Below the pieces are notes generated by a model. The model ran no database searches and was not told the DNA's origin. It worked only from the letters and a program-made list of their open reading frames with translations. From Terriglobales bacterium (GTDB taxonomy: Bacteria; Acidobacteriota; Terriglobia; Terriglobales; Acidobacteriaceae): DNA of 64,000 nucleotides. Numbering within the stretch: position 1 is the first letter of the stretch; every line of letters starts with the position of its first letter. Both the position numbers and the translations under genes were made by a program. Positions 13,701-31,200 of the stretch are shown here, one piece after another. The DNA lies in contig DATBFG010000016.1 in NCBI GenBank assembly GCA_036558645.1, forward strand, positions 21,537 to 85,536, in the 5' to 3' direction.

Positions 13701-14427
13701 CAAGCCTCGATTTCAGAGCGTGCAGCCAACATGGATCGCTACAACGGATTTTGATCAGAATGGAACGCTGGATCTCGGCGTTGCAAATAACGTCAGTCCC
13801 TCGGTTTCAGTATGGTTGGGCAACGGGGACGATACGTTTTATCAGATGTCGACCCCGCCTGTCGGCCGCCCAGGCCCAGTCTCGCTCTGCACAGCGGACT
13901 TCAATAGCGATGGGACACCGGATTTTGCAGAACTCAATAGAACCGACAAGTCCGTCTCTATCGCGCTGGGAGTTGGCGATGGAACTTTCACCGCTGCTTC
14001 TCAAAGACCTGCAACGGGCTCAGAACCAGCGGCAATGATTGCCGCAGATCTCAATGGTGACGGCAAGGCCGACATTGCGCTGGTCAACAAAAATGATAAT
14101 TCTGTGGAAATTCTGCTTGGCTTGGGAGATGGAACGTTCCTGCCGAATCCAAGTCTTGCTACGGCGGCTGGACCTGCGTCACTCTCAGTTGGCGACGTCA
14201 ATGGAGATGGCAACATCGATCTCGTAACAGTCAATCAGACGGCGAATAGTGTCTCCGTATTTCTTAGCGACGGAGATGGGACGTTCCAGGCAAAGCGGGA
14301 TGTTTTGGTAGGTAGAGGGCCAACCTCTGTAGGAGCGGGAGATTTCAACCAGGACGGCACACTTGATTTCGTAGTCACAAACGGCAGCGCCAATACAATC
14401 TCGATTCTGTCGCAGATTGCGCGCTGA
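10714..14427 (+). CDS. Multidomain secreted protein: phosphoesterase (PLC/AcpA-family) domain, about 4 Ig-like 'choice-of-anchor D/HYDIN-like' modules, an IPT/TIG-like module and about 7 FG-GAP/VCBS repeats
   Basis: [17 protein letters not shown] and [18 protein letters not shown] mark the phosphoesterase domain. The blocks ...[14 protein letters not shown]...N.P.SP.V..L.G.G are repeated 4 times. FG-GAP/VCBS repeats such as [30 protein letters not shown] and [14 protein letters not shown] follow. Signal peptide present. The start is GTG at 10714, or GTG at 10723 with GAGG 8 nt upstream. Confidence 0.85.
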
Positions 14428-14494: not shown

Positions 14495-15430
14495 CTACTG
14501 CCGTGCAACGCCTCCAACGCTGGCATACCAGTCGTAGGTTTCCTGTAGTGCTTGTTCCAACGAGTAGCGACATGTAAATCCGGTCGCGCGCAGGCGACTC
14601 ACATCATAGGCGCGGAACAGGGCACCATTCGGCATGCTGGCATCCCAAGTCACACGCTCCTCCATGCCAGTATGGTTAGCAAGGATGTCAACCACATCTC
14701 GTATCCTTCGCGAAACGCCGCTGGCCAAATTAATCGGACCCGTCACGTGATCCATGATCGTGTATAGGGCGCGTACTGTGTCTTTAATGTATAGAAAATC
14801 ACGATAGGCTGACCCGTCACCCCACACGGTAACACTGGTCTTATTCTTTTTCGCGTCGTAGAACTTTTTCACCAGCGACGGAATGACGTGTCCTGTTTCG
14901 GTGTTGAAACGATCATGCGAGCCGAAAAGATTGGTACTGAAGACAAAGGCATAGGGCATTCCGTAACTGTTCTCGTACGTTTGTAGCTGCGCTAGCATCC
15001 CGCGCTTGGCCTGAGCGTAGCCGTACTCTGAAAAGTGCGGCGGTCCCTTCCAGACGTCCTCTTCAGAAAGTGTCACCCCTGCTTCTATGTCTGGATACAC
15101 GGCGATGCTGCCCATGGCTACAACTTTCTTGACCGCGAACTGGTAACACGCATCAATCACATGCGTGTTGATGAGTGTATTTTTCAAGTAGGCTTCACCC
15201 TGGTTTTGCATGATTCCCACAATTCCGCGCACGAATCCGGCCATGTGGAAGACGTAATCGGGTGAATTTTGGGAATAGTAATCCTGGACAGCTTTTCGGT
15301 CCGTGAGGTCACATTCCGACGAAGTGGGGGTCAGGACGCGGGTAAAGCCATGCGACAACAAGTAGTCCTTGAGATGAATGCCCGCGAGGCCAGTACCACC
15401 CGTGATCAAAATCGTGTCATTGCCATTCAT
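14495..15430 (-). CDS. fcl: GDP-L-fucose synthase-like NAD(P)-dependent epimerase/reductase (GDP-4-keto-6-deoxymannose-processing enzyme)
   Basis: Extended-SDR fold with ILITGGTGLAG and YGYAQAK (YxxxK). About 311 aa from the internal ATG at 15430. Same strand and locus as gmd. The exact product (fucose versus another 6-deoxyhexose) is not determinable from sequence. Confidence 0.6.
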   Translation of the reverse strand: MNGNDTILITGGTGLAGIHLKDYLLSHGFTRVLTPTSSECDLTDRKAVQDYYSQNSPDYVFHMAGFVRGIVGIMQNQGEAYLKNTLINTHVIDACYQFAVKKVVAMGSIAVYPDIEAGVTLSEEDVWKGPPHFSEYGYAQAKRGMLAQLQTYENSYGMPYAFVFSTNLFGSHDRFNTETGHVIPSLVKKFYDAKKNKTSVTVWGDGSAYRDFLYIKDTVRALYTIMDHVTGPINLASGVSRRIRDVVDILANHTGMEERVTWDASMPNGALFRAYDVSRLRATGFTCRYSLEQALQETYDWYASVGGVARQ

Positions 15431-15539
15431 GCTCAACGAATCCTTCGCCTGAGATGGTGGTTGAGAGGCTTGTAAATACTTGCGTGATTTCCGTACAAAA
15501 GCCACCGAGGTGTTAGCGCTGTGGACTTGTTCAATCGTC

Positions 15540-16331
15540 TCAATCGAACTTTTTCAGCCCGACCAGCTCTAGCCCGACATTCCATACGAAGATGGGACCA
15601 CACACCAAGTAGCGCCGCCACAAACGCCTGGGCTCGTGGACCAAGCGATAAAGCCATTCGAACCCATTCTCCTGCATCCAGACCGGTGCCTGCTTAAGCT
15701 TGCCAGTATGGAAATCGAAAGCAGCGCCGACTCCTATCATGACTGGAACAGTAAGGCGGTTGCGGAATTCATACATGAACTGGTCTTGTCTGGGAGTTCC
15801 AAGCCCTACCCAAACAATGTCTGGAGCCGCCGACTCAATCGCGCGGGCAAGTATCTGTTTCTCCGATTCGGGCAACGGCCAGACTGCTAATGGGTAAGTA
15901 CCGGCAACGCGCGTTCCGTATTTTCTTTCGCATGTGACCGCTAGCTCTTCCGAAGCCCGGTGGCCATAAAAGAAGTGCCTATATTTCGCTCCGGTCTCAC
16001 GAAGGAGAGTACCCATGACCTCAGGCCCGTATGCCCGCCGGTGAGCGTTCTTAAAACCATGAATGCGTGCCAGCCATTTCATGGGCATGCCATCCATATT
16101 TTTCAAGTCTGCAGCATTGATGATCTCGCGGAGTTTCGGGTCTTTCATCGCCTCGATCATCCCATGCATTCCCATCTGGATGATGTAGCGGGAACAGTCA
16201 CGCTCTTGAATCCAATGATCAATTACCTGCAGGATTTCCGGAATCTGTAGCGGGCTGACGCTCATTCCCAAAACACGAAAAGTTGGGAGAGTTACTTCAC
16301 CCGATTTCGGTATCACGATGCGGCACGCCAT
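15540..16331 (-). CDS. WecB/TagA/CpsF-family (GT26) glycosyltransferase
   Basis: DIVWVGLGTPRQDQFM and VMIGVGAAFDFHTG match the GT26 core. GGAGAGGGA lies immediately upstream of the ATG at 16331. Confidence 0.8.
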   Translation of the reverse strand: MACRIVIPKSGEVTLPTFRVLGMSVSPLQIPEILQVIDHWIQERDCSRYIIQMGMHGMIEAMKDPKLREIINAADLKNMDGMPMKWLARIHGFKNAHRRAYGPEVMGTLLRETGAKYRHFFYGHRASEELAVTCERKYGTRVAGTYPLAVWPLPESEKQILARAIESAAPDIVWVGLGTPRQDQFMYEFRNRLTVPVMIGVGAAFDFHTGKLKQAPVWMQENGFEWLYRLVHEPRRLWRRYLVCGPIFVWNVGLELVGLKKFD

Positions 16332-16555
16332 TCCCTCTCCGGATCTCCGCTCGGAGGTACACATGATTGATTTCGTTAGAACACAGTAAGAGGATTCGCA
16401 CTTTCTGCAAGAACCTTGCAATCAAGATTTTCCAGCGGTGGTTGGGTCCGGGTGTTGGCTCTAGCCTCAGTCAGTTGCGGATGACGCTTCCTTTAAGTCA
16501 AGTGCTTGACCAGTGCTCTATGCTGACTAGCAATTACGGTCTGTCCCTCCTATGC

Positions 16556-17602: not shown

Positions 17603-17880
17603 TTGCTAACCAAAACAAAATGTAACCAGGACTACATGAATGCGCCTAAGAAAACTGCCTCGAAAAGCGGCACGATTGTATACCGATATTCGTCCCAAAA
17701 AAACGGTGAAAAAGTTTTCATCCTCCGCATTTTGTGTCGCGTTGACTGTTACCGCTGATTTAGCGGCGGTTCGCGTTGCAAATCGTATAATCTCGTGATA
17801 TCTAACGGTGGTCGACTGGCCTGAAAGTAGTCCATTCCTCTGGCCTGGCAGCCTAGAGCGATAAAACCGGGAGCAGTGAA

Positions 17881-18711
17881 ATGATGTCGCCGTTGCGCAG
17901 GCTTCGCCACCGGATCATGGTAAGCACACCGGCACGGGTCCCTCTGATTTGGCTTCGCCACCGCGGCCTTGACGACGCTGATGCAATCATCGCCTCTTAT
18001 CCCCGTTCGGGTAACACGTGGTTGCGGTTCATGTTGGCCGAACTCTTCAGCGGCCACCCGACTGACTTCGAGAACATAGATCGGATCGTTCCGGAAATGG
18101 GCCTGCAGGTTCATGCGCAAGGAGTTCTGCCGAATCAGGGGAGGCTGATAAAGAGTCACGAGTGTTACCGAACGCAATACAAACGTGCTGTATACCTGGT
18201 GCGCGATATCCGTGATGTGGCGCTTTCCAATTATTCGCGGGAATGTTCGGTGGGGGCACACTTCATGACCTTTGATGAGTATCTGCCACTTTTTTTGGAA
18301 GGCACGACCAGTGGGTTTGGTTCATGGCAACGGCATGTGAGGAGTTGGATCCGAAGTCCGCTCAACGAACGTGGAGCAATGATCATAGTCCGGTTCGAAG
18401 ATATACGGCGAGACCCGGTATACGAACTCTCCCGTATTTTGACTTTTCTGGGATTCCATCATGCAGCATCAGAAATCAACAGTGCGGTCAACAGTAATTC
18501 CCTTGAGAGCATGCGGCGCAAGGAAGATAGCGCAACGAAGGTGCCTGCCGGGAACCACAGCGAGGCGGGAAGATTCGTTCGGACCGGCTCGGTTGGTGGA
18601 TGGAAGAACAAACTGAACGCCGAGCACCTGCAACTGATTGATGAATATGCGGGCGGAGTGCTGAATGAAATGGGATATCCAACCGCACTTGAAGTCCAGC
18701 GTGTGAGCTGA
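17881..18711 (+). CDS. PAPS-dependent-type sulfotransferase
   Basis: 5'-PSB-like YPRSGNTWL and 3'-PB-like VRDIRDVALS motifs. GGAG lies 7 nt upstream of the ATG. Confidence 0.8.
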   Translation: MMSPLRRLRHRIMVSTPARVPLIWLRHRGLDDADAIIASYPRSGNTWLRFMLAELFSGHPTDFENIDRIVPEMGLQVHAQGVLPNQGRLIKSHECYRTQYKRAVYLVRDIRDVALSNYSRECSVGAHFMTFDEYLPLFLEGTTSGFGSWQRHVRSWIRSPLNERGAMIIVRFEDIRRDPVYELSRILTFLGFHHAASEINSAVNSNSLESMRRKEDSATKVPAGNHSEAGRFVRTGSVGGWKNKLNAEHLQLIDEYAGGVLNEMGYPTALEVQRVS

Positions 18712-18760
18712 CGATTGCAACAAACCATTTAGTTTCTTCTGGAGTTCTGGCACGCCCTAA

Positions 18761-19951
18761 TCAGAAATTCGCTGCTCGCTCAACAGTCTCTTCTGAATCT
18801 GCAACTTTAACCTTTCCCTTTCGGTTAAAGACATCTTCGTAAACGTCGAGAAGTTGCCGGGCAGACTCAATCCAAGAAAATTTCTGAACCTGTTGATAAC
18901 CGGCCTCTTTCAATTTGTTTCTCAGCGGTTGATCGAGTAGAACTCGGTGCAACGCTCGCATAATCTCAAACACATTTTCTGGATTCACCAGGACAGCCGC
19001 GTTACCCACAACTTCCGGCAACGAAGACAGATTCGAGGTGACTACGGGAGTGCCGTGCGCCATAGCCTCAAGTGGCTGCAGCCCGAAGCCCTCGTATAGG
19101 CTGGGAAAGACAAAAACCTTGGCCAGATCGTAAAAAATCCGCAGCACATCTACCGGCACGAACCCCAGGAATCGCACGTCGTTCTGCACTCCGCTGCGGA
19201 TGACGGTACGGCGGAGATCGGGGTGCTTTGACAGCTCGTCTCCGATGATGATGAGTTTTAGATCCTGGTATTTACCGGCTTTTTCCAACTCGCTCTTCAG
19301 AGCAGAGAAAGCCTCAATAATGCGCACCAGATTCTTGTGTGGACTAATGCTACCGGCGTACAAGAGGAACGGATAATTTACCAGGTAACGTTCTGCGATA
19401 AACTGCCGGTCGTTCTGCGTGGTATGCCCACGCAAGAATCGTTCATCAATTGCGTTGTGAATGACCTCGATGTGCTCCCCGGGCAGCTTAAACAGCTTTT
19501 CCACCTCGCCCTTGGTGAAGCGAGACACTGCGAGTACGCGCGCTGCCTTACGCAACACGCGACATGTCAAGAAATACTGAGTTAGGCGTTTGGGCCGGGA
19601 TCGTTGATGTGCCCGATCCATGTGCTCGAGAACATCATGCGCTGTGAGTACATAGGGACAAGGCAGGTTGCGTGGCAGCCAGTATAGATGCGGAATATGC
19701 AGCAGGTCACAATCCAGCCGCTTTAGGATCGACCGGCACCCGACGAATCCCTTGAAAGTCGTATCGGGCTCGACAAGAGTAATCGCCTTGAAATTCGCCG
19801 GCAGCGGGCCGAACTCCTGCAATTTGAGAGGAGATCCGATGAGAACAAAGCTATTGGACTGATCGACTTGGGCCAGTGCGCGCACGATGTTGCGCGTGTA
19901 AGTGCCGATTCCGAATCCTGTGCTACCGCGAATGTCGAGCGCAATCTTCAC
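18761..19951 (-). CDS. Glycosyltransferase family 4 (GT-B, retaining type)
   Basis: C-terminal EGFGLQPLEAMAHGTPVVTS (E-x7-E motif). About 396 aa. GTG start. Confidence 0.85.
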   Translation of the reverse strand: MKIALDIRGSTGFGIGTYTRNIVRALAQVDQSNSFVLIGSPLKLQEFGPLPANFKAITLVEPDTTFKGFVGCRSILKRLDCDLLHIPHLYWLPRNLPCPYVLTAHDVLEHMDRAHQRSRPKRLTQYFLTCRVLRKAARVLAVSRFTKGEVEKLFKLPGEHIEVIHNAIDERFLRGHTTQNDRQFIAERYLVNYPFLLYAGSISPHKNLVRIIEAFSALKSELEKAGKYQDLKLIIIGDELSKHPDLRRTVIRSGVQNDVRFLGFVPVDVLRIFYDLAKVFVFPSLYEGFGLQPLEAMAHGTPVVTSNLSSLPEVVGNAAVLVNPENVFEIMRALHRVLLDQPLRNKLKEAGYQQVQKFSWIESARQLLDVYEDVFNRKGKVKVADSEETVERAANF

Positions 19952-19975
19952 GAGACCGCCCCGTCCGGTTCGAGA

Positions 19976-20728
19976 TCACAGCTTGGTGTTCTCAAGATAA
20001 TGCTTCATTGTGCCGTCTCGGTCCACTAAATACGTGCCGGGTGGAGCAGGAGAGTCCGATGAAGAGATGAGCCGGTCCACGACTTGAGCGACGGCCACGG
20101 GCTCTACATAAGATGAGAAGTCAAAGCCGGCCGGGCGGCGACGCCTAATACCATTGGTAATCAACTGAAATGTGGGGATCAGCTGATAGACCCGCAATTG
20201 GTCACGGGGATGTTCCTCGGCGATGGCGCGCAACAGGGCATGCAGTCCAGCCTTGGACGCGGCGTATGCTGCCCTGCCCGCCCCAGGCAGTACAGCCACA
20301 TCGGACGACAGGTTAACGATGATGCCGGGAGGGTCGGAAAGCAGGTTCTGCAACAACTGCGAGACAAGTATGCAGTGCCCGACACAGTTGGTTCCGATGA
20401 CTTGTTGCCACTCCCGGGCGGAAGTGTTAGCCGCCGGATGTCTTTGATCCGCTCCGTAATCCACCGCACACAATACGACGGCTCGGAACACCATCGTCTG
20501 CAACGTTGCCGCACATTTTTCTATATCGGAAATGTTCGACAGGTCCAATCGATGCCAACCAATGTTATTGAGTTCTGATGGTGATTCTCCTGCGGGCTCT
20601 GGCCTTGTACGGGAGACGCCGACAACACAGTGACCGCTCTGGACCAGGGCGCGTGCAACTGCCCTTCCGATACCATGCGATGCGCCGGTAACTAGCACGC
20701 GGCTAGCAGTACGCGACAGGTTTTCCAA
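19976..20728 (-). CDS. Short-chain dehydrogenase/reductase (SDR)
   Basis: VLVTGASHGIGRAV (TGxxxGxG) and YAASKAGL (YxxxK). The TTG start at 20728 overlaps the upstream stop by 26 nt. The alternative GTG at 20698 would leave only 3 residues before the TG motif. Confidence 0.85.
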   Translation of the reverse strand: MENLSRTASRVLVTGASHGIGRAVARALVQSGHCVVGVSRTRPEPAGESPSELNNIGWHRLDLSNISDIEKCAATLQTMVFRAVVLCAVDYGADQRHPAANTSAREWQQVIGTNCVGHCILVSQLLQNLLSDPPGIIVNLSSDVAVLPGAGRAAYAASKAGLHALLRAIAEEHPRDQLRVYQLIPTFQLITNGIRRRRPAGFDFSSYVEPVAVAQVVDRLISSSDSPAPPGTYLVDRDGTMKHYLENTKL

Positions 20729-21860
20729 GGTTGTCTCGCGAAAAGTCGACGATTGCCTTCACGAACTTCATGCCGTGCCGTCTCTGGTTGCAAAGCATGT
20801 TGGTCACAGCTTCTGGCAATTGCTCCAGCGTGAGGAAGCAATGTGGAAGGTGGCTCTTTGAAACCGCCCCGCTAGAAAGTACTTGAATCGCATCGAGAAT
20901 GTGCCTTTTCGCCGTTCCCCGGTGACCGAGAAGAAACATCGACTTGTTTGTGACACGGTCAGAAATCGTCGTCGCTGGGCTGAAATTAGTACCACAGCTA
21001 TTCTTCCAGCGAACCTGATCGAGGTTCACCTCAGGAATTCGACCTTCTTTGTATTCAGTCGGGAATCCCGCCATCAAATCAATCGTCGCACCGTCCGGGA
21101 GGACGTCCAACAACAAGCGCAGTCCCTCAGGAGCTTCAGCGCGAGAGGAACACAAAATAGCCGCGGTAAGTCGACTGGCTAGCGAGTGCTCGCGAATTGT
21201 GTCCTGCAGATTGGTTGTGCTGCAGATGAACACATTCGCCGGCCAATTTGAGAAGGCACTGAGCCACTCCGCATGTTCTTCTGAACCCGCCACCAGGAGC
21301 ACCGGTGTCGTCATGAATCGGGACCATGCTACAGCTGCCAGGATGCCAATCGTTCCGGAACCCCTTATCAGCAGTCCCGAACCGGCTGAGTTTCGGCGCA
21401 AAAGTTCCAGGCTGTACAACACTGATCCCAAAGGTTCAGCGAGAACTAGCTCTGTGTCTTCGAGCGTACATCCGTCTGGACAACGAACCAGCAATTCTCC
21501 AGTGTCGGCTTCGTTCGCGTTCAACCAGAACCACTCCCGAAGCACACCATCGGAACTGTGGCCGATTACGACACCGGGACGGATACGATGGACAGGATTA
21601 ATGACCACGCGAGTACCGACTGGGATAGGCCAGCCTTCAGGAGCTTGAGCAATCTTGCCGACGCCCTCATGACCAAGGATTTCAGCCTGAACGGCTCGCT
21701 TGCCGGAAAGCATGGCAAGATCTGTCCCGCAAATGCCCACCGATGACATTCGGATCAGGACGTTAGAGTCCTCGATGGATTGGCTCTTGTGCTTCCTTAC
21801 CGCAAGACTGTTATCAGGGGTTAGGCGTGACAGAACTCTATGCTCTGGCACGTTAAGCAC
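20703..21860 (-). CDS. Medium-chain (Zn-type) alcohol/polyol dehydrogenase-like protein without an obvious structural-Zn Cys loop
   Basis: GICGTDL...ILGHEGVGKI and the Rossmann motif GSGTIG. I place the start at GTG 21860, which overlaps the upstream stop in GTGCTTAA. The 453-aa ORF-track version would overlap the upstream gene by about 210 nt. Confidence 0.75.
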   Translation of the reverse strand: MLNVPEHRVLSRLTPDNSLAVRKHKSQSIEDSNVLIRMSSVGICGTDLAMLSGKRAVQAEILGHEGVGKIAQAPEGWPIPVGTRVVINPVHRIRPGVVIGHSSDGVLREWFWLNANEADTGELLVRCPDGCTLEDTELVLAEPLGSVLYSLELLRRNSAGSGLLIRGSGTIGILAAVAWSRFMTTPVLLVAGSEEHAEWLSAFSNWPANVFICSTTNLQDTIREHSLASRLTAAILCSSRAEAPEGLRLLLDVLPDGATIDLMAGFPTEYKEGRIPEVNLDQVRWKNSCGTNFSPATTISDRVTNKSMFLLGHRGTAKRHILDAIQVLSSGAVSKSHLPHCFLTLEQLPEAVTNMLCNQRRHGMKFVKAIVDFSRDNLGKPVAYC

Positions 21861-24153
21861 TCTGCGCAACCTCAAGCGTCTTTCCACCTGACCAAGCCCA
21901 GATGAATCCAAGTGCTTTCTCAAGGTCGGGCTGACTGACCTCATCGATAAATCTCGATTCCCCGATGCCGGATAGCACTGGCATTCGGAGATAGCCTCCG
22001 CGATGCCGTTTCGCTTCGCGCACACCTCGTAGCAACATTTCGATCGACATTCCAGGCCGAACAATCGGCAATCCTAGAACATGCTGGGTAAGGAGGATTT
22101 CTTCTGCATCAGATCGGTCGAGGATGCCAAGCACTACGGCCAGGGCGGTTGCGAAAGCCATGTCCAGGGCGACAGCTTCTCCGTGCTCCAGGTCCGGCAA
22201 TTCGAACTCGAATATAGGACTGAAGGTATGTCCATAATCGGGAAGGCGCGTGAGCGTCCGCTCAAACAAATTTGGAGCCAGTTCAAGTAGCATCGCCTTG
22301 ATCGATCTTCGTATGAGTTCCAGTCCCTTTGCATTCTGGAGCTTTGTACGGATGAGTAAGGGGGCATTTTCTTGAATGAGCCGGAAAAGCTCGCCGTCGG
22401 CTACCAGACCAATCTTCAACGACTCAGACAAGCCATTGCGTATCTGTCGCTCTGAGAGTGTCGAGAGAAAGTCGGGATCTATCACCACCGCAAATGGAGG
22501 GCAAAAGGTCCCGAGCCGGCTCTTGCTATAGCGAAAGTTCACGGCATTCTTAACGCCAATCCCAGCGTCGATGGCGCCGACGAGGGTAGTGGGTATTTTT
22601 AGACACGGTATCCCGCGCCGAAAGAGGTTGGCCGAAAAACCAACGATGTCGAGCGTAATTCCACCGCCCGCTGCGACGATGAGATCTTGGCGCCTTCGTA
22701 CACCCAGCATGTCGAAATGAGAAGCTACTTCGGCAATCGCTCCCAGATCCTTCTCCTTCTCGGAGGCTCGGAGAATGATGGTTTCGACCTGCCGACCCGG
22801 TCCTGCCAGTACTCGTTGCAGACGCTCGCCATAGATGTCGTCTACGGCGAAATCAGAAACCAGAATGATCCGCTCGAAGGGCTCGAGAAGATCCTGCGGA
22901 AAAACACCGTTGCGGCAGATGCCCGGCGATAAGTGGATGGGATAGTCGATCGAGTGCTCGCGCGATACTCTGAATGGAAAATCTGACGTAAGAGTCTCGC
23001 AGCGGTGGAGATTTGGCACCTCGCGCGCAACAGACGCCGCGCCGATCAGGCCCGCATCATCCGAAATCGGCCCAAGTATCACCCGATCCGCCCAGAAAGA
23101 ATCCGTCTCAGACTCTAGCGGGTAATACCCTAACTCACACAGATTCTCGATCACTGACTCCAAATAGGCATCGCGAAGGAAAAAGCACACGCCCCCGGTG
23201 AGAATCAGTTTGTCGAGTTCGGGGTCCAGCATAAAATGCCACTTGGCCGCCTCGGCGATCGGCTGCGTGATTGCTCTGAGGACGGTCTTCGACAACGAAT
23301 CGCCCTTGGCCAGACCGTCCGCTAACCTATCGAGGGAAACATCCGGATCTTCCCCTTTACTCAATACTGAAGCCGCGAACTTAGAGGGAAAAACATCTGG
23401 CAGCTGCTTCAAGACATTCTTGATCCCTTCGCCGGAAGCGAATGCGCTCAAGTGATTCGTGCCTCCACAATCGCATTTCAGCGAAAGTGGCTGTCCGTCG
23501 ATCAAAAAATTGATGGGGTGATGGCCTATCTCACCCTGAACTCCGAGTTCGGCATCAACCGGAACGTGCGGAACTGAGCAATTCAACGTTCGAGATGCAA
23601 TTCCGGTACTAACAGTGATGAGTGAAAGGCGGCGAGCATGCCGCATATCTGGAAGCAACGAGTGGGCTATCAACGAGGCAGTTACGTCGTTCACGATCGC
23701 CACCTGAGCACCCGGTAAACGCTCCTTGATGGCCCGTTTCAGGTCGAAGCAAGCGGAGTTATCGCCGAGAATGGGTCCAGACCCGAGAATCACACCAGTA
23801 TGAGCGTTCATGGCCGCGCCCATCGAAATGGCGATAGCTGGTGGCTGCCTGATCGAAAAGGATTGCGCGGTGCCTGCAATGTAGTCAGCAATCCGGCCTA
23901 GAACTTCGGTGGCGGAGGCGCCCGGCATGGACCTGTGATTTATCGACGGAATTCGTTGTAGCGAGGTCAACCGTCCTTCGCGCGTGAGCAGGGCACTTCG
24001 AAAGGACGTTCCCCCAATGTCAAACGTGGCCACGGCGTTGCCATGACCGAGAGCAACAGGAAACTGTTCCATAGTTGTTCTATGGGGAGACCCAGCCAGA
24101 GGACTGCGCACGATGCGACTCACCAAGACGACGCTGATCTTGGGAGCGAACAT
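21853..24153 (-). CDS. Fusion protein: N-terminal ROK-family sugar kinase and C-terminal 3-dehydroquinate-synthase-like sugar-phosphate cyclase
   Basis: N-terminal half: FDIGGTSFR, NDVTA and GEIGHHP...CDCGGTNHL (ROK Zn motif). C-terminal half: AAGGGITLDIVGFSANLFRRGIPCLKIPTTLVGAIDAGIGVKNAVNF, SESLKIGLV, YGHTFSPIFE and HGEAVALDM (DHQS-like). The domain junction is near nt 22970. The start is ATG at 24153 or ATG at 24072; neither has a clear SD. Confidence 0.8.
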   Translation of the reverse strand: MFAPKISVVLVSRIVRSPLAGSPHRTTMEQFPVALGHGNAVATFDIGGTSFRSALLTREGRLTSLQRIPSINHRSMPGASATEVLGRIADYIAGTAQSFSIRQPPAIAISMGAAMNAHTGVILGSGPILGDNSACFDLKRAIKERLPGAQVAIVNDVTASLIAHSLLPDMRHARRLSLITVSTGIASRTLNCSVPHVPVDAELGVQGEIGHHPINFLIDGQPLSLKCDCGGTNHLSAFASGEGIKNVLKQLPDVFPSKFAASVLSKGEDPDVSLDRLADGLAKGDSLSKTVLRAITQPIAEAAKWHFMLDPELDKLILTGGVCFFLRDAYLESVIENLCELGYYPLESETDSFWADRVILGPISDDAGLIGAASVAREVPNLHRCETLTSDFPFRVSREHSIDYPIHLSPGICRNGVFPQDLLEPFERIILVSDFAVDDIYGERLQRVLAGPGRQVETIILRASEKEKDLGAIAEVASHFDMLGVRRRQDLIVAAGGGITLDIVGFSANLFRRGIPCLKIPTTLVGAIDAGIGVKNAVNFRYSKSRLGTFCPPFAVVIDPDFLSTLSERQIRNGLSESLKIGLVADGELFRLIQENAPLLIRTKLQNAKGLELIRRSIKAMLLELAPNLFERTLTRLPDYGHTFSPIFEFELPDLEHGEAVALDMAFATALAVVLGILDRSDAEEILLTQHVLGLPIVRPGMSIEMLLRGVREAKRHRGGYLRMPVLSGIGESRFIDEVSQPDLEKALGFIWAWSGGKTLEVAQSA

Positions 24154-24435
24154 CGATCAACACACAGGGTGAGACGCGGTTCGGGGGCGGGTTCCCCGAT
24201 TCGGGCCGTAATTTTATGTCGGTCTATTACCAATTGCAACCTAAAATCATTTTTTCTCTCAGATATGTTTCCCATCGTGCGTAAACGTTCTTCGTGTTGC
24301 GGCAATATCTTTGTAGCTCCTTTTATCGGAGTAACTTCAGCAAACATTCTTCGCGTTCTTGGGTATGGGAAGACGACAACCTCGTAAATAAAGCACTTGG
24401 TGATATAGATCGACAGATTGGATCGCTGTCGTCGA

Positions 24436-24451
24436 CGTCGCTCGAGCGACG
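24436..24451. promoter_or_regulatory. 16-bp perfect palindrome CGTCGCTCGAGCGACG in the divergent intergenic region; candidate operator
   Basis: Read directly from the sequence. It lies between the cyclitol-like operon (minus strand) and the yqaA-like gene (plus strand). Confidence 0.3.
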
Positions 24452-24621
24452 AGGTCTATCTCTTAAATGGGGTGTTCGTTAATTCCCTGCCACTGCAACG
24501 AAATCATGGGTCGTTTCTAGAATCTAGCAGCGAGCATTCAGGAGTGAATGGTTCATAGTCTGTTAAACTACGAACTTGGTATCTTATTTCTTAGCCTGCT
24601 CTTAAAGTAGAGTTCCCCGTC

Positions 24622-25248
24622 TTGGAGACCCTCAAGCATCTTCTTATTCGCTATACCGCCTTTGTCTGGGGTGTCCTTAAGCCACTGGGATCATGGGCCG
24701 TTTTTGCCATCGCGGGCATCGACTCGGCATTTTTCGGGCTGCCTCTCGATCCCGTAGTCGCTAGTTACGTTTATGCGGACAATTCGCGGTTCTTCCTCTA
24801 CGCAGTGATGGCAGCTGCTGGCTCTGCCGTCGGATGCATCATTCTTTATGTGATCGGCTACAAAGGCGGCGAAGTCCTATTGGCCCGGCGCATGTCCGAA
24901 GCAAAGTTCAACAGGATACGCAGTTCTTTCGACCGGCATGAGTTCTGGGCACTCATGTTTCCGGCGATGATGCCGCCGCCCTTCCCATTCAAAGTTTTTG
25001 TGCTCGCGGCAGCCATATTCGAGATGAATTTCGGACACTTTCTGCTAGCCATTTTCGTGGGACGTTTCGTCCGCTTTCTCCTTCTATCTCTGTTGGTTCT
25101 GCAGTTCGGTCCGCAGGTTGTTGCACTTTCCTCCGAAATGGTTTTAAGCCATTGGATTGTGGTACTTACTGTTGTCGTCGCAATCGGACTCTTGGGGGGA
25201 GGGATCTGGTATCGCTCGCGCCGAAAGAAGGCCATCCAGGCGGGCTGA
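24622..25248 (+). CDS. YqaA/DedA-like (VTT/SNARE-associated domain) inner-membrane protein
   Basis: Multiple TM segments. The motif GLPLDPVV...AAAGSAVGCIILYVIGYKGG is typical of this family. TTG start with no SD, so the start is uncertain. Confidence 0.6.
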   Translation: METLKHLLIRYTAFVWGVLKPLGSWAVFAIAGIDSAFFGLPLDPVVASYVYADNSRFFLYAVMAAAGSAVGCIILYVIGYKGGEVLLARRMSEAKFNRIRSSFDRHEFWALMFPAMMPPPFPFKVFVLAAAIFEMNFGHFLLAIFVGRFVRFLLLSLLVLQFGPQVVALSSEMVLSHWIVVLTVVVAIGLLGGGIWYRSRRKKAIQAG

Positions 25249-25316: not shown

Positions 25317-28199
25317 TCAGAACGCTACGATCCGGGCGGTGAACTGCACCTGGCGAGTACTGCCGAAGTGATTGGTATCGGGAGCATACAGCGCTTGCCC
25401 AGCGCTGAAGATCGGCGTTGAAGAAGTTCCGTAGAGGTTGATCGCATCGGGACCGAAGTTGCGGTTTCCCGCACCAGTCACGTTGAAGACGTCAAGGAAG
25501 AGATCCAGGTGGTGCCCCTCGCCTGGTAGAGTGAAGTCCTTCACAAAACGGATATCCAGATTATAGAAAGCGGGCTGCCGCAAGCTGTTCCTCTTGGCTA
25601 CCGTTCCACCCAGCAGCGCCCGCTCGTTGAAATCGTTTGCGTCATTCTGAAGGTCGAATCCGATTACGGGAGTGTAGGGTGCACCCGATCGCGCCACGAA
25701 TACCGGGTTGCACTTGAATCCGAGCGGCAAGTTGATCACACCGCTCAGGTTAAAGTTGTGCCGGATATCGAGCGAGGAATATCCACGCTCAAGAGCCAAG
25801 TTGAACGGGTCGAGAGCAGCTTCACGAGCAAAGGGGCCGGTGTTGGAGTCGTCGTCGTTGGCACTCGACAATGTGTAATTCGCAACCAGCTGTGAACGGT
25901 GAGGAAGTTGAAGATTCGCCGTTAGCAACAGCGCGTTGTATGAAGAGTGAGCCGAGGACTGATTCTCAAGCAAGCGCCCGATACTCGGATCAGAACGCAT
26001 CCCGGGAAAAATTGGCAGTCCGCCGACGCTGGATGATGGCCGGTTCAGGTTGACATCAAGCCGACGTTGCAAATCCCAGGTGCTGTTGCGTAAGAAACCT
26101 GCGGAAACCGACAGCATCTTGCTGAATTGCTGCTCAACATTCGCGGATGCCTGGGAGGAACGAGGGTTACGAAAGTCGGGAGAGATGCCGAACACTGCCG
26201 CCGCAGGCGTGGTCAAGCCTGCGGGCGGAGCCGCCAAAGGCTGTGCGATAAGACCCGGGATCGAGACCAGGGGCAGAATCTGTGGATCGAAATAGCTGTC
26301 GGCAACAACGTTGTTCAATCCATTGTCCGTGATAACGCGCTGGAAAATTGTGGCCGGGGTAGCTGCGGCATAAAGTCCGGACGAAAGGCGAACCACCGTT
26401 TTCGACGCTGGGTTCCAGGCGAGGCCAAGGCGTGGTTGCCATTGGTTGAGATCGTTAGAAATGTGAGTTGTTAAGGGGATGACCGGATTGGGATTCACAG
26501 GCTGCGGATTCCACTGCCCCTGCCAGCGCAAGCCGCCGCTCAAGGTCAAAGCTTTGGTGACAGGAAACTTTCCGATGATGTAGAAGCCGAGTTCCCGTAC
26601 CGAATCGTCGAACTTGGAGTCTCCCACCAGGAACGTCTGTTGATAGCGGCGAGGCAGGTTCGCGACGTAATCCGCAAGGGAGTCAAAGTCGAAGCGGCCG
26701 TTCAAATTGGCTTCGTGCTCCTCGCGCACGGGATTGAACGCGAACAATGCGCCCAGTTGGATCAGGACATTCCCATGGTTAATGGCGAGATCGTCTCCCA
26801 ACTCACGCCGTTCGGATTTGTAGGTCTGAGGACTAAGACTGTTGCCGCCAAGCCTACCGAAGCCGTTGATGACAATCTCGGGCGAAATCACGTTCGAGCG
26901 TACATCGCGCAGGTCGCTTGCCCACTGCGCCACAAATTGATTCACCATCGTAGGACTTAACAGTGTCGTGAGATTGCCGCGGCCCCAAAGGCTATGGCCG
27001 ACCAGTGAATTGCTGTTGCTCTCCGAGGCGTCGGTTCGCGTTGAACCGAACGTAAGATCTGTTGCATGGATGCGGTTGTAGTCGAACTCGAGATTCAGGG
27101 TATTCTGTGAATTCAGTATGACCTCTGTTCTTCCAAAAATGGCTGTCGGGTTGCTATGCCCGACAACCTGGTGTTCGCGATTTCTCAGTGATTGGGGAAC
27201 TGCCACGCCGGGAGCTTGTGGCTGAAACTGCGTCCAATACGGGATGTGTAGGAAATCCTGCTCCGCTCCCAGGTAATAGAAGATGCGATCCTTCCTAATC
27301 GGCCCTCCGAAAGACCCCCCGAACTCGTTCTGCAGGTTATCCAACGAGTGATCGAAGGTATCTCGCGAAGATAGCGCCGACGGGCGTCCTATGTAAAAGC
27401 CCTCGCCGTGGAACTTGTTACTGCCCGCCTTGGTGACAACATTCACAAATCCAGCGTTGGTGTTCCCGGTTTCCGCACCGGCACCGGACTGCACGATTTG
27501 AAACTCGCGCACGGCGGTCTGCGGAAAGAAAAGGGCACTGTCGTTGCCGCCGCGCTCTCCGCCATGCAGGGGATCAACGAAATCGAACCCATCGACCGCG
27601 AACTTGACGGCTGTGGGGCGCTGTCCGGCGATCGACAAGCCACCGTTTACGAGAACAGACGCCGCTGCGAGTTGGCCGAACTCGGTGAAATCGCGATCGC
27701 GATTCGGAAGATAAGTAACAGTTAGCCCAGCAAGAAAGTTACTCACCTCCGGGTCCTGTTTGTTTATTGCCGGTGGCAGAGTGTTGCCCTCGGCCGTAGG
27801 ACCGGTAGCAGTCACCTTCACCTGCTCGGAAGCGCCCGCAACTTGAAGCGGAATCGTGAGGCGAACTTCGCTGCCAACATTGACAGAAACTCGCGGGAGC
27901 TTCTTGGGCTTGAATCCGGGCGATTCGACTTCAACGGTGTAGACTCCCGCCGGAAGAAACACGGTACTGAATGTTCCGTTGTCCGCGCTCTCCAGCCTAC
28001 GTGTCGTTGAAAAGTCGTTGCTTCGGATTGTGACCTTGGACCGAGGAATCACTTTCCCATGCGGATCGGTTACCGTTCCACTGATCGATCCGCGAGCGGC
28101 GGACTGGGCCCACGCGAATGAGCAGGAAAGAGTCATGCAAGCAAACAGCAAGGGGACGAAACCGGGGAGACAGATTGCTAGCTTCGTCCTCATGAACAT
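25317..28199 (-). CDS. TonB-dependent-receptor-like outer-membrane barrel with an N-terminal CarboxypepD_reg domain
   Basis: Signal peptide, then GSISGTVTDPHGKVIPRSKVTI...GVYTVEVESPGFKP (carboxypeptidase-regulatory-like fold), then a long beta-rich region. The C-terminus ...QVQFTARIVAF ends in an aromatic residue (OMP beta-signal). Confidence 0.8.
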   Translation of the reverse strand: MFMRTKLAICLPGFVPLLFACMTLSCSFAWAQSAARGSISGTVTDPHGKVIPRSKVTIRSNDFSTTRRLESADNGTFSTVFLPAGVYTVEVESPGFKPKKLPRVSVNVGSEVRLTIPLQVAGASEQVKVTATGPTAEGNTLPPAINKQDPEVSNFLAGLTVTYLPNRDRDFTEFGQLAAASVLVNGGLSIAGQRPTAVKFAVDGFDFVDPLHGGERGGNDSALFFPQTAVREFQIVQSGAGAETGNTNAGFVNVVTKAGSNKFHGEGFYIGRPSALSSRDTFDHSLDNLQNEFGGSFGGPIRKDRIFYYLGAEQDFLHIPYWTQFQPQAPGVAVPQSLRNREHQVVGHSNPTAIFGRTEVILNSQNTLNLEFDYNRIHATDLTFGSTRTDASESNSNSLVGHSLWGRGNLTTLLSPTMVNQFVAQWASDLRDVRSNVISPEIVINGFGRLGGNSLSPQTYKSERRELGDDLAINHGNVLIQLGALFAFNPVREEHEANLNGRFDFDSLADYVANLPRRYQQTFLVGDSKFDDSVRELGFYIIGKFPVTKALTLSGGLRWQGQWNPQPVNPNPVIPLTTHISNDLNQWQPRLGLAWNPASKTVVRLSSGLYAAATPATIFQRVITDNGLNNVVADSYFDPQILPLVSIPGLIAQPLAAPPAGLTTPAAAVFGISPDFRNPRSSQASANVEQQFSKMLSVSAGFLRNSTWDLQRRLDVNLNRPSSSVGGLPIFPGMRSDPSIGRLLENQSSAHSSYNALLLTANLQLPHRSQLVANYTLSSANDDDSNTGPFAREAALDPFNLALERGYSSLDIRHNFNLSGVINLPLGFKCNPVFVARSGAPYTPVIGFDLQNDANDFNERALLGGTVAKRNSLRQPAFYNLDIRFVKDFTLPGEGHHLDLFLDVFNVTGAGNRNFGPDAINLYGTSSTPIFSAGQALYAPDTNHFGSTRQVQFTARIVAF

Positions 28200-28241: not shown

Positions 28242-31200
28242 TTAGAACGACAACTTTGCGGAGAACTGGAACGACCGCGCAGGAAGCTGTGCGGTGATTC
28301 CTGTGAGCTCGTCCCCGAATCCTTCTTGCGGAGTATTGCCGTTCCCCCACAGGCCGTTGTAGTTGACGACATTGCGGTGGTTGAAGACGTTGAACGATTC
28401 GGCTCGGAGCAGCAGCTGGACACGCTCGGTTCCCAGCGAGAAGGGCCTCTCGATGAACGGGGATACGTCATAGATCGCGTTGCCGCGGCCGATGTTGCGT
28501 CCGAGCAGCGCTCCGTTCACGACCGGGCGATCGGTGGTTGCGCCGGGATCTCCGCTGTTGTTGCTGCCAGTGGTCACGTTGAAGGGCAGCCCAGAGGCGA
28601 ATGTGGCGACTCCGCCGAAGCTGATCTTCAGCGGAAAGACATAGACGCCGCTGACCACGAAGCGATGACGCTGGTCGAAAATGGCGTTTCCGAGTTCGAC
28701 ATTCTTTCCGGTGAAGTTGGGATTATTGGGGTTCTGCCCTGGCACGTCAGGGTCAACCGTATCGAGAGCATGCGACCAGGTGTAGCTGGCAAGCACCGAG
28801 AACCGCCGGCTGAAACGATGGTTCAGGTTGACATCCAGGGCGTTATAGTATGCGGCGCCGTTATTCACGTCGGTGGTGATTACGGCATATGGCGGCGGGT
28901 TTGTGTTGCTGGCATCGCAAACCGCGCCATTTTGGTTGTACCAATATACCCAGAATGGGCGAGAACAATTGGCAAGTTTGGGATCGACGATCGAGTTCCC
29001 CACCCGGGTTGGCGCCGGGGAATCCAAATCGAGCGGCCGGTTGATCTTGATGGTGTGCGACCCAACGTAGTCGAGACTGAGAACCCAATCGGATCCCAGC
29101 TGACGCTCAAATCCCACGGTCCACTGCTCTGTGTACGGATTGAGCAGCGCGTCGGGATATCCCTTCAGGACCGAAGTTGGAAAGAACTGGTTGTAGAAAG
29201 CAGCGTCACCGGGACGAATGTAAAGTGTGCGTAGTGGCGCCTGTGCGCCCGCAGGAAATGCAGGCAATGGTGCATCGGCGACCGTGCTGGGAAATCCAAC
29301 CTGGCCAGGAGTTGCAGTGTAGTTGAACACGCCAGTAGGTCCGGTCAGAGCGTAGTTGGCAGCAGCATTGTCGACAATCTGCGAGTAGTAAAGACCAAAG
29401 CTGCCACGAAGCACAGTTTTTTGATCGCCGTGAAGGTTGTAGACGAAACCTACACGAGGAGAGAAGTTCTTGTTTGCGTCGGTAAAGGTCTGCCGTTCAT
29501 AACGCAGGCCGAGATTCACCGTCAGATCAGGCCGCAATTTGAAGTCGTCCTGGGCGAACAAAGACCATAGCGTGTCATCCACGGTGTACGTTCCGTTGCC
29601 ATAGCTCTGCGTGTAGCTCGCGACATTGTTGATGTCGCCGATGTAGGCAGGGCTTTCGCAAAAAGCAACCGATGCCACGCAGGTGTTATAAGTGAACGAT
29701 CCCAGAAAGATCGGACCGCCGAACTCTTTGCTGTCTCCGCCGTTGTGGGCATGAATAACGTCGCCACCGAATTTCAACGTGTGACGTCCGTGCACCCAGG
29801 CAAGAGTGTCATTGAACTCATATTGATGGTTGAGCAGCAGAGCCGATTGCGATGTCCCGCTGGTGAAGCGTCCCTCAGTCGTGGGAACAATGTATTGGGT
29901 GCTGAAAATTACCGGATCGAATTGAGTGATTGGCGATCCCAACTGGAATTGCCCGCGGAAGTTGTTCAGCAAGGTTGGACTGAGTACCGCCGTCTCTCCG
30001 AGTGTGGCGGTGTAGGTACGGCGCTTGAATGTGCGCGCTACCGTGGGAAGGTTGTTTCCGCCCACGGCGCCGTTGGGATTCGTATCAAAAAAGCTGTCGG
30101 CGCTGGCGCGGAAGAATAGGTTGTTCTTGTCATTGATCTCGTGATCAATTCGCGCGTCTCCGAGCCAACCGCGATAATGGCCGGTAAAGGTTCCAAGGGC
30201 CAGAGGCGACGTTACCGGTGATGCCCGATTCTGCCAGCTGTATTCACCCGACAGGAAGAAGTGGGTCTTATCTCCGAAAAGCGGCCCAGAAAATGTTGCC
30301 GCGGCTTGAGTCAGCTCATCGCTCAAGATTTGATTGCCACTTGTCGCCGTGTCAAAGGTAAATCCTGAAAGGGTAGCTCCCAGTTCCCTCGGCCGCCATA
30401 GGGCAAACAAGCTGCCATGGTAGTCGTTGGTGCCGGTCCGCGTGACAATGTTTACAACGCTCCCCGCGCTTCTGCCATACTCCGCCGAGAACGGGTTGCT
30501 TAACACCGTCATTTCGTCCACCGCGTCGAGTTGAATATTGGTAAAGATCGTTTGGCGTCCCCAAGCGTCGCTGGAATTGGCGCCATCCACTTCGAACCAC
30601 GCCTGGCGGCGTCCGGTTCCGTTGGTTGTAAACAGGTTCTGATTCACGAAGATGTCGCCTTGGCTAATGGCCGGACGATTCGCGGAATTCAACAACGGAA
30701 GATAGGTGATCCGTCGGTTCAGTAACGGCATATCCTGAATCTGCTTGGGATTGAGCCAATCCCCAACCTGAGGCTCGTCGGTCCTTACTTCGCCACCCAC
30801 ACCGGTGACTGTAATCTCAGTTTTTTGAGTAGCAGCATTCAGTTGCAACCGAAAATTCGCGTTACTTCCGCCGATAAGCTCGATGTTCTCAAGCTTGCCA
30901 TCCTGAAAACCGCTTTTTTGCGAGGTGATTTCGTAGGATCCGCTGGGTAATCCGCTGAGAACGAACCTGCCAGAAGAATCGGTCTGAGTTTTGCGCTCTA
31001 CTGCGGTTTTGTTGCTTCGAATAATGATCTCAACGCCAGGTACCGCAGCCTGCGTTTGATCGAACACTTGGCCGGTAAGGTTAATTGTGTCAGGTGTTTG
31101 GGCCCGCAGGAAGCTAGGCGGAAAACACACGCAAAGTGCGAGAACGAATAGCACACCCAGATTTCTATTTTTCAAGGTAATTGTCTCAATACAGGAAGTA

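Follow-up and report, generated by a model that had tools for sequence, protein, structure and literature searches.

A window of 64,000 nucleotides from the genome of a Terriglobales bacterium of the Acidobacteriota (positions 21,537 to 85,536 of contig DATBFG010000016.1) encodes a single protein in which an N-terminal kinase of the ROK family is joined to a C-terminal sugar phosphate cyclase. We propose, with a probability that we put at roughly 0.6, that this fusion is a bifunctional EEVS (synthase of 2-epi-5-epi-valiolone) and C7-cyclitol kinase which starts a cyclitol-phosphate pathway like that of acarbose. What the window and its relatives show directly, namely which domains are present, their active-site residues, how far the fusion is conserved and which genes are linked to it, is set out below before the proposed function and its alternatives are weighed.

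The fusion protein and its two catalytic domains

The original prediction for this DNA described one open reading frame (ORF) at 21853-24153 joining a ROK kinase to a cyclase, and such a frame is present. In its longest form it spans 21853..24153 on the minus strand and encodes 766 aa counted from the first ATG, and Pfam matches that are far beyond chance cover both halves (E-values of 1e-19 to 4e-30; in the numbering of the 766-aa ORF, residues 44-378 match ROK, 459-572 match DHQ_synthase and 574-715 match DHQS_C). The motifs quoted in that prediction, FDIGGTSFRS, GVQGEIGHH, KCDCGGTNHLSAF, IPTTLVGAIDAGIGVKNAVNF, DYGHTFSPIFE and LEHGEAVALD, are all found in the translation. The in-frame ATG at 24153 gives the protein 27 further residues; the real start is probably the ATG at 24072 (MEQFPVALG...), because an identical protein in NCBI (P0001, "ROK family protein [Terriglobales bacterium]") has a length of 739 aa and Terriglobales homologues begin at the same point. 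Residue numbers of the fusion are counted here from the ATG at 24072 (739-aa form), except in Pfam and NCBIfam match ranges. An AlphaFold2 model of the fusion built with 47 sequences has a mean predicted local distance difference test score (pLDDT) of 88.6 and a predicted template modelling score of 0.71. The pLDDT exceeds 90 across most of the cyclase domain and falls to 63 at residues 351-360, between the two confident domains, where the short inter-domain linker lies (Table 1); the ROK and EEVS tblastn matches are separated by just 45 nt.

The cyclase half is classified by sequence and fold as an EEVS-type sedoheptulose-7-phosphate cyclase and not as AroB, the 3-dehydroquinate synthase (DHQS) of the shikimate pathway. 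It has the two-domain DHQS fold, the GGG and E..K motifs and the Glu/His/His metal site of the superfamily of sugar phosphate cyclases, and E438/K441, G469-G471, E550, H615 and H630 are invariant among its relatives. E550, H615 and H630 are the metal ligands, and K553, N601 and R609 are further key residues; E438/K441 and G469-G471 lie in its N-terminal, nucleotide-binding half and, by the DHQS fold, would serve in NAD binding. Against TIGR01357, the AroB equivalog model, the cyclase half scores 206.9 bits where the cut-off is 305, and against NF004852 it scores 196 bits where the cut-off is 333. A phmmer search of the PDB returned the validamycin cyclase ValA (4P53) at 265 bits (E 9e-78), desmethyl-4-deoxygadusol synthase (DDGS, 5TPR) at 171 bits, the best DHQS at 143 bits and 2-deoxy-scyllo-inosose synthase (DOIS) at 96 bits, which places ValA 94 bits ahead of DDGS. 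Foldseek with the fusion model gave a concordant ranking, with 4P53 first (E 1.1e-36, target-normalised TM-score 0.94), then DDGS and then the DHQSs, and every one of the top matches was a sugar phosphate cyclase. Sequence identity of the domain is 42% to ValA, 33% to DDGS and 32% to DHQS.

Active-site residues were compared by aligning the cyclase domain with the ValA, DDGS and DHQS sequences from the PDB matches, with DHQS numbered by the 6LK2 chain; the 19 active-site and signature positions compared are a selection made in this analysis. The fusion is identical to ValA at 17 of the 19, including D281, S287-P288 and H360-R361. D502, K508, N512, E550, K553, E604 and the metal ligands H615 and H630 are common to the fusion, ValA, DDGS and DHQS. 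Other positions separate these enzymes. N601 is as in ValA, where DHQS has Asp; D612 corresponds to ValA D281, where DHQS has Asn (N258) and DDGS has Ala (A302); and S618-P619 corresponds to ValA S287-P288, where DHQS has Gly-His (G264-H265). H690-R691 corresponds to ValA H360-R361, where DHQS has Val-Met and DDGS has Thr (T381) at the H360 position, and the fusion reads Arg-His where DHQS has K338-V339. The same residues recur across 51 ROK-linked cyclases, fused or unfused: Asp stands at the D281 position in all 51 and His at the H360 position in 49, and the S287 and P288 positions are kept in 50 and 46 of them, respectively.

Two active-site fingerprint sites have been reported to separate bacterial EEVS from DDGS (eLife 2015, PMC4426668). 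The domain is closer to a characterised EEVS than to DDGS, DHQS or DOIS, and it carries EEVS-type residues at D281, H360 and S287-P288. The two fingerprint sites are probably D281 and H360, and the alignment is consistent with this. Work by Kean in 2014 is said to have indicated that product identity among sedoheptulose-7-phosphate cyclases is set by few residues. A DDGS identity was rejected on the Ala and Thr that DDGS has at the D281 and H360 positions and on its score 94 bits below that of ValA. Confirmed 2-epi-valiolone synthase (EVS) enzymes group with DHQS in published trees (PMC5133447), and this grouping, taken with the wide gap between the ValA and DHQS scores, argues indirectly that the cyclase half is unlikely to be an EVS. 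AroB itself was ruled out by the TIGR01357 score below cut-off and by the replacement of the DHQS residues N258, G264-H265 and K338-V339 by D, S-P and R-H. The original prediction had therefore been correct that the active site departs from the AroB pattern; its lean towards the sedoheptulose-7-phosphate cyclase branch was also right, and can be sharpened to EEVS by the first rank of ValA in sequence and in the fold comparison that the prediction had proposed, together with the ValA-type residues at D281 and H360.

In the kinase half, ROK motifs were mapped by aligning the family profile to the structures of glucokinase 2QM1 and NanK. They comprise D18-x-G20-G21-T22 (phosphate 1), N128-D129 (catalytic base), T153-V-S-T-G157 (phosphate 2), G180-E-I-G-H184, C200-x-C202-G203...H207 (zinc site) and TGGV at 292-295, including G293-G294 (adenosine). 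The ROK half is intact in that the DxGGT motif, the catalytic Asp of N128-D129, GEIGH, the zinc motif and TGGV are invariant in 51 relatives, as they are in smaller sets of 18 and 47. The kinase is of the ROK type, as had been predicted, and not a P-loop shikimate kinase: the AroK-AroB models NF010627 (121 bits, cut-off 565) and NF010556 (88 bits, cut-off 560) match just via their AroB parts (residues 428-747 and 457-737), which rejects an AroK-AroB identity. A ROK repressor was likewise rejected, as just 13 residues stand before the first strand, leaving no helix-turn-helix domain.

The zinc site follows a variant pattern, CxCGxxxH: His takes the place of Cys as third ligand, and Ser, Asn or Ala stands where sugar kinases have a Glu directly after it. 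Ordinary glucokinases among the matches of the profile search below carry ENDANA and CxCGxxGCxE. A profile search of 5.8 billion proteins delimited a sharply bounded subfamily, with members scoring at least about 205 bits and full-length members 322-452 bits, while generic glucokinases scored at most 130 bits. Proteins that JGI names EEV 7-kinase (EEV, 2-epi-5-epi-valiolone), a function name that is automated annotation and not experimental evidence (as are all JGI names cited here), carry the same signature, CxCGGxxH plus VND(V/I)TA, and the gene of one of them sits directly after an EEVS gene and before genes for a medium-chain dehydrogenase/reductase (MDR) and a short-chain dehydrogenase/reductase (SDR). 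Members of the subfamily adjoin or are fused to EEVS in the 80 loci described below. By these signatures the kinase half is a member of an EEVS-linked ROK subfamily, and the subfamily signature cannot separate specificity like that of the acarbose kinase AcbM from that of the validamycin kinase ValC.

Occurrence of the fusion and organization of its cassette

The same one-ORF ROK-EEVS architecture occurs in about 100 cluster representatives (90% identity clusters) that are 59-73% identical to the fusion protein and come from independent JGI, ENA, NCBI and Logan assemblies; further one-ORF proteins were found at 32-47% identity. An exhaustive HMMER search of 1.84 billion representatives recovered about 40 clusters (50% identity) with a colinear full-length match. 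A scan with one genome per species yielded 80 loci, which were sorted as fused or unfused by reading frame and stop codons. True fusions are present in many Terriglobales, in Ideonella, Kitasatospora, Streptomyces inhibens, S. aureoversilis, Saccharothrix and Terrabacter, in a metagenome-assembled genome (MAG) of Streptosporangiaceae, and in MAGs labelled Saccharibacteria, Gemmatimonadales and Dehalococcoidales. Both domains were confirmed by Pfam in the uninterrupted translations of six fused loci from several phyla, one of them low-GC. The search for this pairing that the original prediction had suggested thus shows it across Terriglobales, actinomycetes, Ideonella and several MAG phyla, and an assembly or frameshift artefact, which would have undone the prediction, is ruled out by the recurrence of the same single ORF in hundreds of independent assemblies across phyla. 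In public databases these relatives are named "ROK family protein" or "3-dehydroquinate synthetase/sugar kinase".

Several individual loci deserve mention. In L018 (Streptomyces sp.) and L023 (Nocardia aurea), ROK and EEVS are in frame with exactly one stop between them and close relatives are fused, which points to a recent event of fusion or fission; read-through, or differences in sequencing, could also account for it. One MAG labelled Candidatus Saccharibacteria (L016) holds a whole fusion-MDR-SDR-NUDIX cassette, and another (L039) holds ROK>EEVS>MDR, unfused; such cassettes are unexpected for genomes so reduced, and mis-binning is possible.

When the window proteins were used in tblastn searches, ROK, EEVS and MDR were found together in essentially all 80 loci, usually with an SDR, in three layouts. 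The first has the ROK-EEVS fusion followed by the MDR, with or without the SDR. The second, seen on the Streptomyces clavuligerus megaplasmid and in Nocardia, has adjacent ROK and EEVS genes and then the MDR, with an aminotransferase, a ribulose-phosphate epimerase and haloacid dehalogenase (HAD) hydrolases. The third runs EEVS>ROK>MDR>SDR>xylose-isomerase-like TIM barrel>HAD and is found in most Streptomyces and in Pseudomonas silvicola, Vibrio paucivorans and Serratia. Neither the fused loci nor the window gave a match to the TIM-barrel and HAD genes of these unfused cassettes. Since neighbour-joining trees of ROK, EEVS and MDR recover broadly the same groups, the three proteins appear to travel together as a trio; these trees are crude and were used just for the similar clustering of the three proteins, not for counting fusion events.

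Other fusions of the same domains were also seen. EEVS-ROK fusions in the reverse order are present in P0330, P0335 and P0345 (reverse-order proteins 710-734 aa), and across P0330, P0335, P0345, P0356, P0376 and P0351 other partners of EEVS-like domains include a sugar nucleotidyltransferase, a GFO/IDH/MocA oxidoreductase and an AMP-binding (adenylating) enzyme. Giant proteins of 1,700-5,600 aa (P0305, P0329, P0331, P0333 and P0417) combine a complete ROK-EEVS module, 29-32% identical to the window protein, with MDR, NAD-epimerase, radical-SAM/SPASM, PHP or AAA domains. P0305 (L093:3001-10962) carries DHQS-like, ROK, EEVS and MDR domains in one chain, P0333 carries EEVS, epimerase, ROK and MDR domains, and P0417 (MDP3921414.1, 5,619 aa) is annotated as "ROK family protein [Candidatus Omnitrophota bacterium]". 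By their domain content these giant proteins look like whole cyclitol operons fused into single polypeptides.

In the window, the fusion gene is followed by an MDR gene, an SDR gene and a glycosyltransferase gene of family GT4 (Table 1). Translation of the MDR gene is coupled to that of the fusion gene: its GTG start runs into the fusion stop codon in an 8-nt overlap (GTGCTTAA), a GAGG lies 9 nt upstream, and the same 8-nt overlap is found in relatives at 62-67% identity. The MDR motifs GICGTD, GHEGVG, AEPLG and GSGTIG are read as the putative catalytic-zinc ligands (Cys, His, Glu) and the GxGxxG nucleotide-binding motif. Many MDR relatives are named "2-epi-valiolone-7-phosphate 1-reductase" by JGI, which we believe to be the database name for AcbL. 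The SDR gene overlaps the end of the MDR gene by 26 nt, carries TGASHGIG and YAASK, belongs to the same enzyme class as AcbN, and is kept after the MDR in loci of Terriglobales, Ideonella and Saccharibacteria as well as in most of the unfused clusters. PDB searches were uninformative on the substrates of both proteins, returning generic relatives alone for the MDR (best E 1e-7) and FabG-like reductases alone for the SDR. Public gene calls leave the SDR with 190 aa, without its TGxxxGxG Rossmann motif, and the MDR with 348 aa; both proteins regain their full length when read from the TTG and GTG starts, each of which overlaps the gene before it.

Table 1. Coordinates of the fusion, its domains and neighbouring genes in the window.
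Feature	Coordinates	Strand	Size and start	Basis
ROK-EEVS fusion coding sequence	21853..24072	minus	739 aa, stop codon counted in the coordinates	identical NCBI protein, homologue starts, domains
ROK kinase domain	23017..24033	minus	residues 14-352	Pfam ROK, motif alignment, conservation
Inter-domain linker	22975..23016	minus	about residues 353-366, about 14 residues, EVPNLHRCETLTSD	pLDDT dip
Predicted EEVS-type sedoheptulose-7-phosphate cyclase domain	21889..22974	minus	residues 367-728	PDB search, Foldseek, residue table
MDR (zinc alcohol-dehydrogenase-like)	20703..21860	minus	385 aa, GTG start	ADH_N Pfam match; AcbL-like by automated annotation
Classical SDR	19976..20728	minus	250 aa, TTG start	adh_short Pfam match, E 3e-30
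GT4 glycosyltransferase	18761..19951	minus	396 aa, 24 nt downstream of SDR	Pfam Glycos_transf_1 and Glyco_transf_4
Cytosolic-type 3'-phosphoadenosine-5'-phosphosulfate (PAPS) sulfotransferase	17881-18711	plus		PF00685, E 8e-33
WecG/TagA/CpsF-family glycosyltransferase	15540..16421	minus		Pfam and NCBIfam matches
GDP-fucose-synthase-like NAD epimerase/reductase	14495..15505	minus		Pfam and NCBIfam matches

The GT4 gene is probably the last of the operon in this genome. Its product has weak, sub-threshold NCBIfam similarity to the MSMEG_0565, BshA and MshA families, and the gene adjoins the cassette in just some relatives. Flanked by the GT4 gene and a gene for a GDP-mannose 4,6-dehydratase, but read from the other strand, is the sulfotransferase gene; its product matched no NCBIfam family and it is not present in the other Terriglobales loci. 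In the tblastn survey of 80 loci, the sulfotransferase, dehydratase and GT4 genes were not generally conserved beside the cassette. Homologues of the WecG-type and GDP-fucose-synthase-like genes (59-76% identity) lie within 10 kb of the fusion in L008-L014, L028, L029, L090 and L091, and a link between the cassette and these WecG-family transferase and 6-deoxyhexose genes, in a surface glycoconjugate, is possible. Domain annotation of the neighbourhood found no shikimate-pathway genes near the fusion, and Pfam annotation found no O-methyltransferase or ATP-grasp gene of the mycosporine pathway there. A promoter and terminator scan of 17700..24700 found sites no more numerous than in shuffled sequence; a single promoter-like site lies upstream of the fusion gene at 24239-24211, and no weight is placed on it.

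The wider window contains other gene groups. Upstream of a divergently transcribed VTT/DedA-family membrane protein gene (24622-25248) are two tandem genes (25317-28199 and 28242-31244, both minus strand) for TonB-receptor-like outer-membrane proteins with CarboxypepD_reg and outer-membrane beta-barrel domains; the same neighbours are present in L001. Two large phosphoesterase-family (PF04185) proteins are encoded at 7542-9515 (minus strand) and 10714-14427 (plus strand), the latter a protein of 1,237 aa in which the phosphoesterase is fused to ASH/Cep192-type Ig-like domains and FG-GAP repeats, and FG-GAP/ASH relatives flank the cassette in other Terriglobales loci. Three paralogues at 45866-47968 (minus strand), 47984-49930 (minus strand) and 50008-51894 (plus strand) each have an N-terminal sulfatase and C-terminal TPR repeats.

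Proposed function and competing explanations

In the acarbose pathway, AcbC converts sedoheptulose 7-phosphate to 2-epi-5-epi-valiolone, AcbM phosphorylates this product at C7 and AcbO epimerises C2 (PMC9200736, PMC7081202). AcbM is described as highly similar to ROK family proteins (PMC9200736/PMC7081202). AcbL, assayed with Zn2+ and NADPH, then converts 5-epi-valiolone-7-phosphate to valienone-7-phosphate, from which the SDR AcbN produces valienol-7-phosphate (PMC9200736, PMC7081202). By homology to these enzymes and from gene context, substrates, an order of steps, a channelling advantage and a final product may be proposed for the window. The C-terminal EEVS domain, with NAD+ and Zn2+ or Co2+, would cyclise sedoheptulose 7-phosphate to 2-epi-5-epi-valiolone with loss of the phosphate. 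The N-terminal kinase, of AcbM/ValC type, would then use ATP to re-phosphorylate the C7 hydroxymethyl of the neutral cyclitol, so that the intermediate would stay charged and be kept inside the pathway. The AcbL-like MDR would dehydrate the ketocyclitol phosphate and the SDR, of AcbN class, would carry out a ketoreduction, together giving an unsaturated or reduced cyclitol 7-phosphate. The acarbose pathway leaks neutral intermediates into shunt products (PMC7081202), and as cyclisation removes the phosphate, it is plausible that immediate re-phosphorylation by a tethered kinase would be an advantage; channelling between the domains is an idea only.

Several observations weigh against this assignment. 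Two of the 19 compared cyclase positions are unlike ValA, with T608 for R277 and R689 for K359. The link to AcbM, ValC, AcbL and AcbN comes from JGI automated names and gene context, and for the SDR and AcbN just from enzyme class and gene position. The window MDR shares just 22-34% identity with MDRs from the clusters of actinomycetes and proteobacteria. Loci of the fused layout are without the TIM-barrel and HAD phosphatase genes of the unfused EEVS>ROK>MDR>SDR cassettes, so the pathway cannot simply copy the valienol-7-phosphate route, and because the epimerase-like gene is absent from the fused cassette its end product probably differs from valienol-7-phosphate. Finally, ValC, the other cyclitol ROK kinase to have been characterised, acts on later intermediates, having been used on valienol and valienone (PMC9200736, PMC7081202), so that belonging to this family does not settle what the kinase acts on.

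This last point also underlies the alternative that survives best, which we regard as a minority possibility. Here the cyclase would be an EEVS as proposed, and the kinase would act later, in the manner of the ROK-like cyclitol kinase ValC, on the enone or reduced cyclitol made by the MDR and SDR, with the fusion serving co-expression or stoichiometry. The subfamily signature does not tell the two kinase types apart, and without the epimerase-like TIM-barrel gene the order of steps in the fused clusters may differ. The automated names of the relatives are, however, those of an EEV 7-kinase and not of ValC function. The MDR relatives bear the function name of AcbL, and the substrate in AcbL assays carried a 7-phosphate, which implies that phosphorylation comes first; as a general inference fusions of enzymes for consecutive steps are the commoner pattern.

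It is improbable that the cyclase makes a different class of product, such as the product of DDGS or EVS or a new stereoisomer. Identity to ValA is just 42%, and the two substitutions noted above could be taken in this sense. The positions equivalent to D281 and H360 are nevertheless of ValA type, here and in 51 and 49 of the 51 relatives, where DDGS has Ala and Thr; ValA outscores DDGS by 94 bits; EVS groups with DHQS (PMC5133447), against which the fusion scores far lower; and neither the O-methyltransferase nor the ATP-grasp gene of mycosporine synthesis is nearby.

More unlikely again is that the kinase supplies the substrate of the cyclase, for example by phosphorylating free sedoheptulose or another heptose, although ROK kinases do normally act on the primary hydroxyl of free sugars. 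Sedoheptulose 7-phosphate is a standard intermediate of the pentose-phosphate pathway, and no dedicated kinase is needed for it. Sugar-specific ROK kinases have a Glu after the zinc motif, which the subfamily has lost, and in place of Cys the subfamily has His as third zinc ligand; its relatives are annotated as EEV 7-kinases; and AcbM, which is ROK-similar, has been shown to act on a cyclitol. Between the two kinds of channelling that the original prediction had allowed, action of the kinase on the cyclitol product has far better support than a role in substrate supply. A shikimate DHQS fused to a sugar kinase, or an artefact of assembly or frameshift, can be dismissed despite the 3-dehydroquinate synthase label given to the C-terminal half by Pfam and JGI, given the low TIGR01357 score (206.9 bits, cut-off 305), the replaced DHQS-specific residues, a neighbourhood free of shikimate-pathway genes and a single ORF repeated in hundreds of independent assemblies across phyla.

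For the bifunctional EEVS and C7-cyclitol kinase that we favour, the absence from the cassette of the epimerase-like and phosphatase genes of an acarbose-type route raises the speculative prospect that the fused Terriglobales cassette makes an undescribed phosphorylated C7-cyclitol (e.g., of the 2-epi series). Such a compound might be glycosylated by the GT4 enzyme, with a cyclitol phosphate as acceptor in the manner of MshA, perhaps sulfated in this genome, and built into a cell-surface glycoconjugate by way of the recurrent WecG-family transferase and 6-deoxyhexose genes nearby. Carbasugars would in that case serve one of the most abundant soil bacterial groups as structural or ecological metabolites, beyond their role as actinomycete antibiotics.

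Relation to known cyclitol systems

Acarbose, validamycin, gadusol, kirkamide and streptol are examples of C7-cyclitols, which are of value as drugs, for crop protection and as signals, and their study has so far centred on actinomycetes, Burkholderia leaf symbionts and animals. The literature searched contained nothing relevant on a described ROK-EEVS fusion or on EEVS in Acidobacteria. Neither the enzymes nor their pairing is new; what the literature searched does not describe is the covalent fusion, its spread over Acidobacteriota and other phyla, and the cassette free of epimerase and phosphatase genes. The fusion is a new arrangement of a known antibiotic-type pathway, with no new chemistry, and leaves views of enzyme mechanism unchanged. 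To a specialist in cyclitol biosynthesis it would be a useful lead and a tidy confirmation of the "Rosetta-stone" kind, and no surprise: the occurrence of fusions in both domain orders and of giant polyproteins supports EEVS, the ROK kinase and the AcbL-like MDR as one functional unit. A self-contained two-step enzyme could simplify the making of phosphorylated cyclitols, as the pathway is leaky for neutral intermediates (PMC7081202). The cassette is also a lead to unknown carbasugar products in Terriglobales of soil and peat, where the genes are hidden under the names "ROK family protein" or "3-dehydroquinate synthetase".

Among known kinase-cyclase fusions, AroK-AroB and the eukaryotic AROM polypeptide likewise join a kinase to a cyclase of the DHQS fold. 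Their kinase part belongs to the shikimate pathway and is a P-loop shikimate kinase, whereas that of the window protein is a ROK kinase, and the likeness is one of analogous architecture and not of shared family. DDGS (Ava_3858, PDB 5TPR) shares the fold and the metal- and phosphate-binding framework of the fusion cyclase but has Ala and Thr where the fusion has Asp and His at the D281 and H360 positions, and its mycosporine partner genes are not near the window gene.

The unfused cassettes of the EEVS>ROK>MDR>SDR>TIM-barrel>HAD type have ROK, EEVS, MDR and SDR proteins homologous to those of the window at 22-44% identity. They differ from the fused loci in that the order of ROK and EEVS is reversed, the genes are unfused, and the TIM-barrel and HAD genes are added. 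The loci of the S. clavuligerus megaplasmid (NZ_CP065235.1) and Nocardia are closer in arrangement, with the same order as the window (ROK, "sedoheptulose 7-phosphate cyclase", MDR-like). The window protein aligns to the ROK and cyclase pair of the S. clavuligerus type in a single alignment at 36% identity over residues 9-720, and in the trees of ROK, EEVS and MDR these loci fall together with several of the fused forms; unlike the fusion, they keep two genes about 21 nt apart. The aminotransferase, ribulose-phosphate epimerase and HAD hydrolases in the S. clavuligerus-type cluster suggest that it makes an aminocyclitol product.

A close functional parallel is the acarbose cluster of SE50/110, in which AcbC, AcbM, AcbL and AcbN are of the same enzyme classes as the window proteins and follow in a matching logical sequence: a sedoheptulose-7-phosphate cyclase of the DHQS fold, a kinase of ROK type, a zinc MDR and an SDR. 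The function names of AcbM and AcbL are those given by JGI to relatives of the ROK half and the MDR. The acarbose proteins are separate, while kinase and cyclase are one chain in the window, and the acarbose route further depends on AcbO (epimerase), AcbJ (phosphatase), AcbU (kinase) and AcbR (nucleotidyltransferase), for none of which a counterpart was recognised by Pfam in the window cluster. ValA of the validamycin pathway of Streptomyces hygroscopicus provides the closest solved structure to the cyclase half (4P53), and ValC is also similar to ROK family proteins; these two are again separate proteins, unlike the window fusion. Burkholderia EEVS clusters always carry a ROK protein (bioRxiv 10.1101/2022.09.27.509721). 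With the pairing of ROK and EEVS already known from AcbM/AcbC, ValC/ValA and the Burkholderia clusters (PMC9200736, bioRxiv 10.1101/2022.09.27.509721), the window protein is best seen as a covalent version of an established partnership, and not as a surprising new combination.

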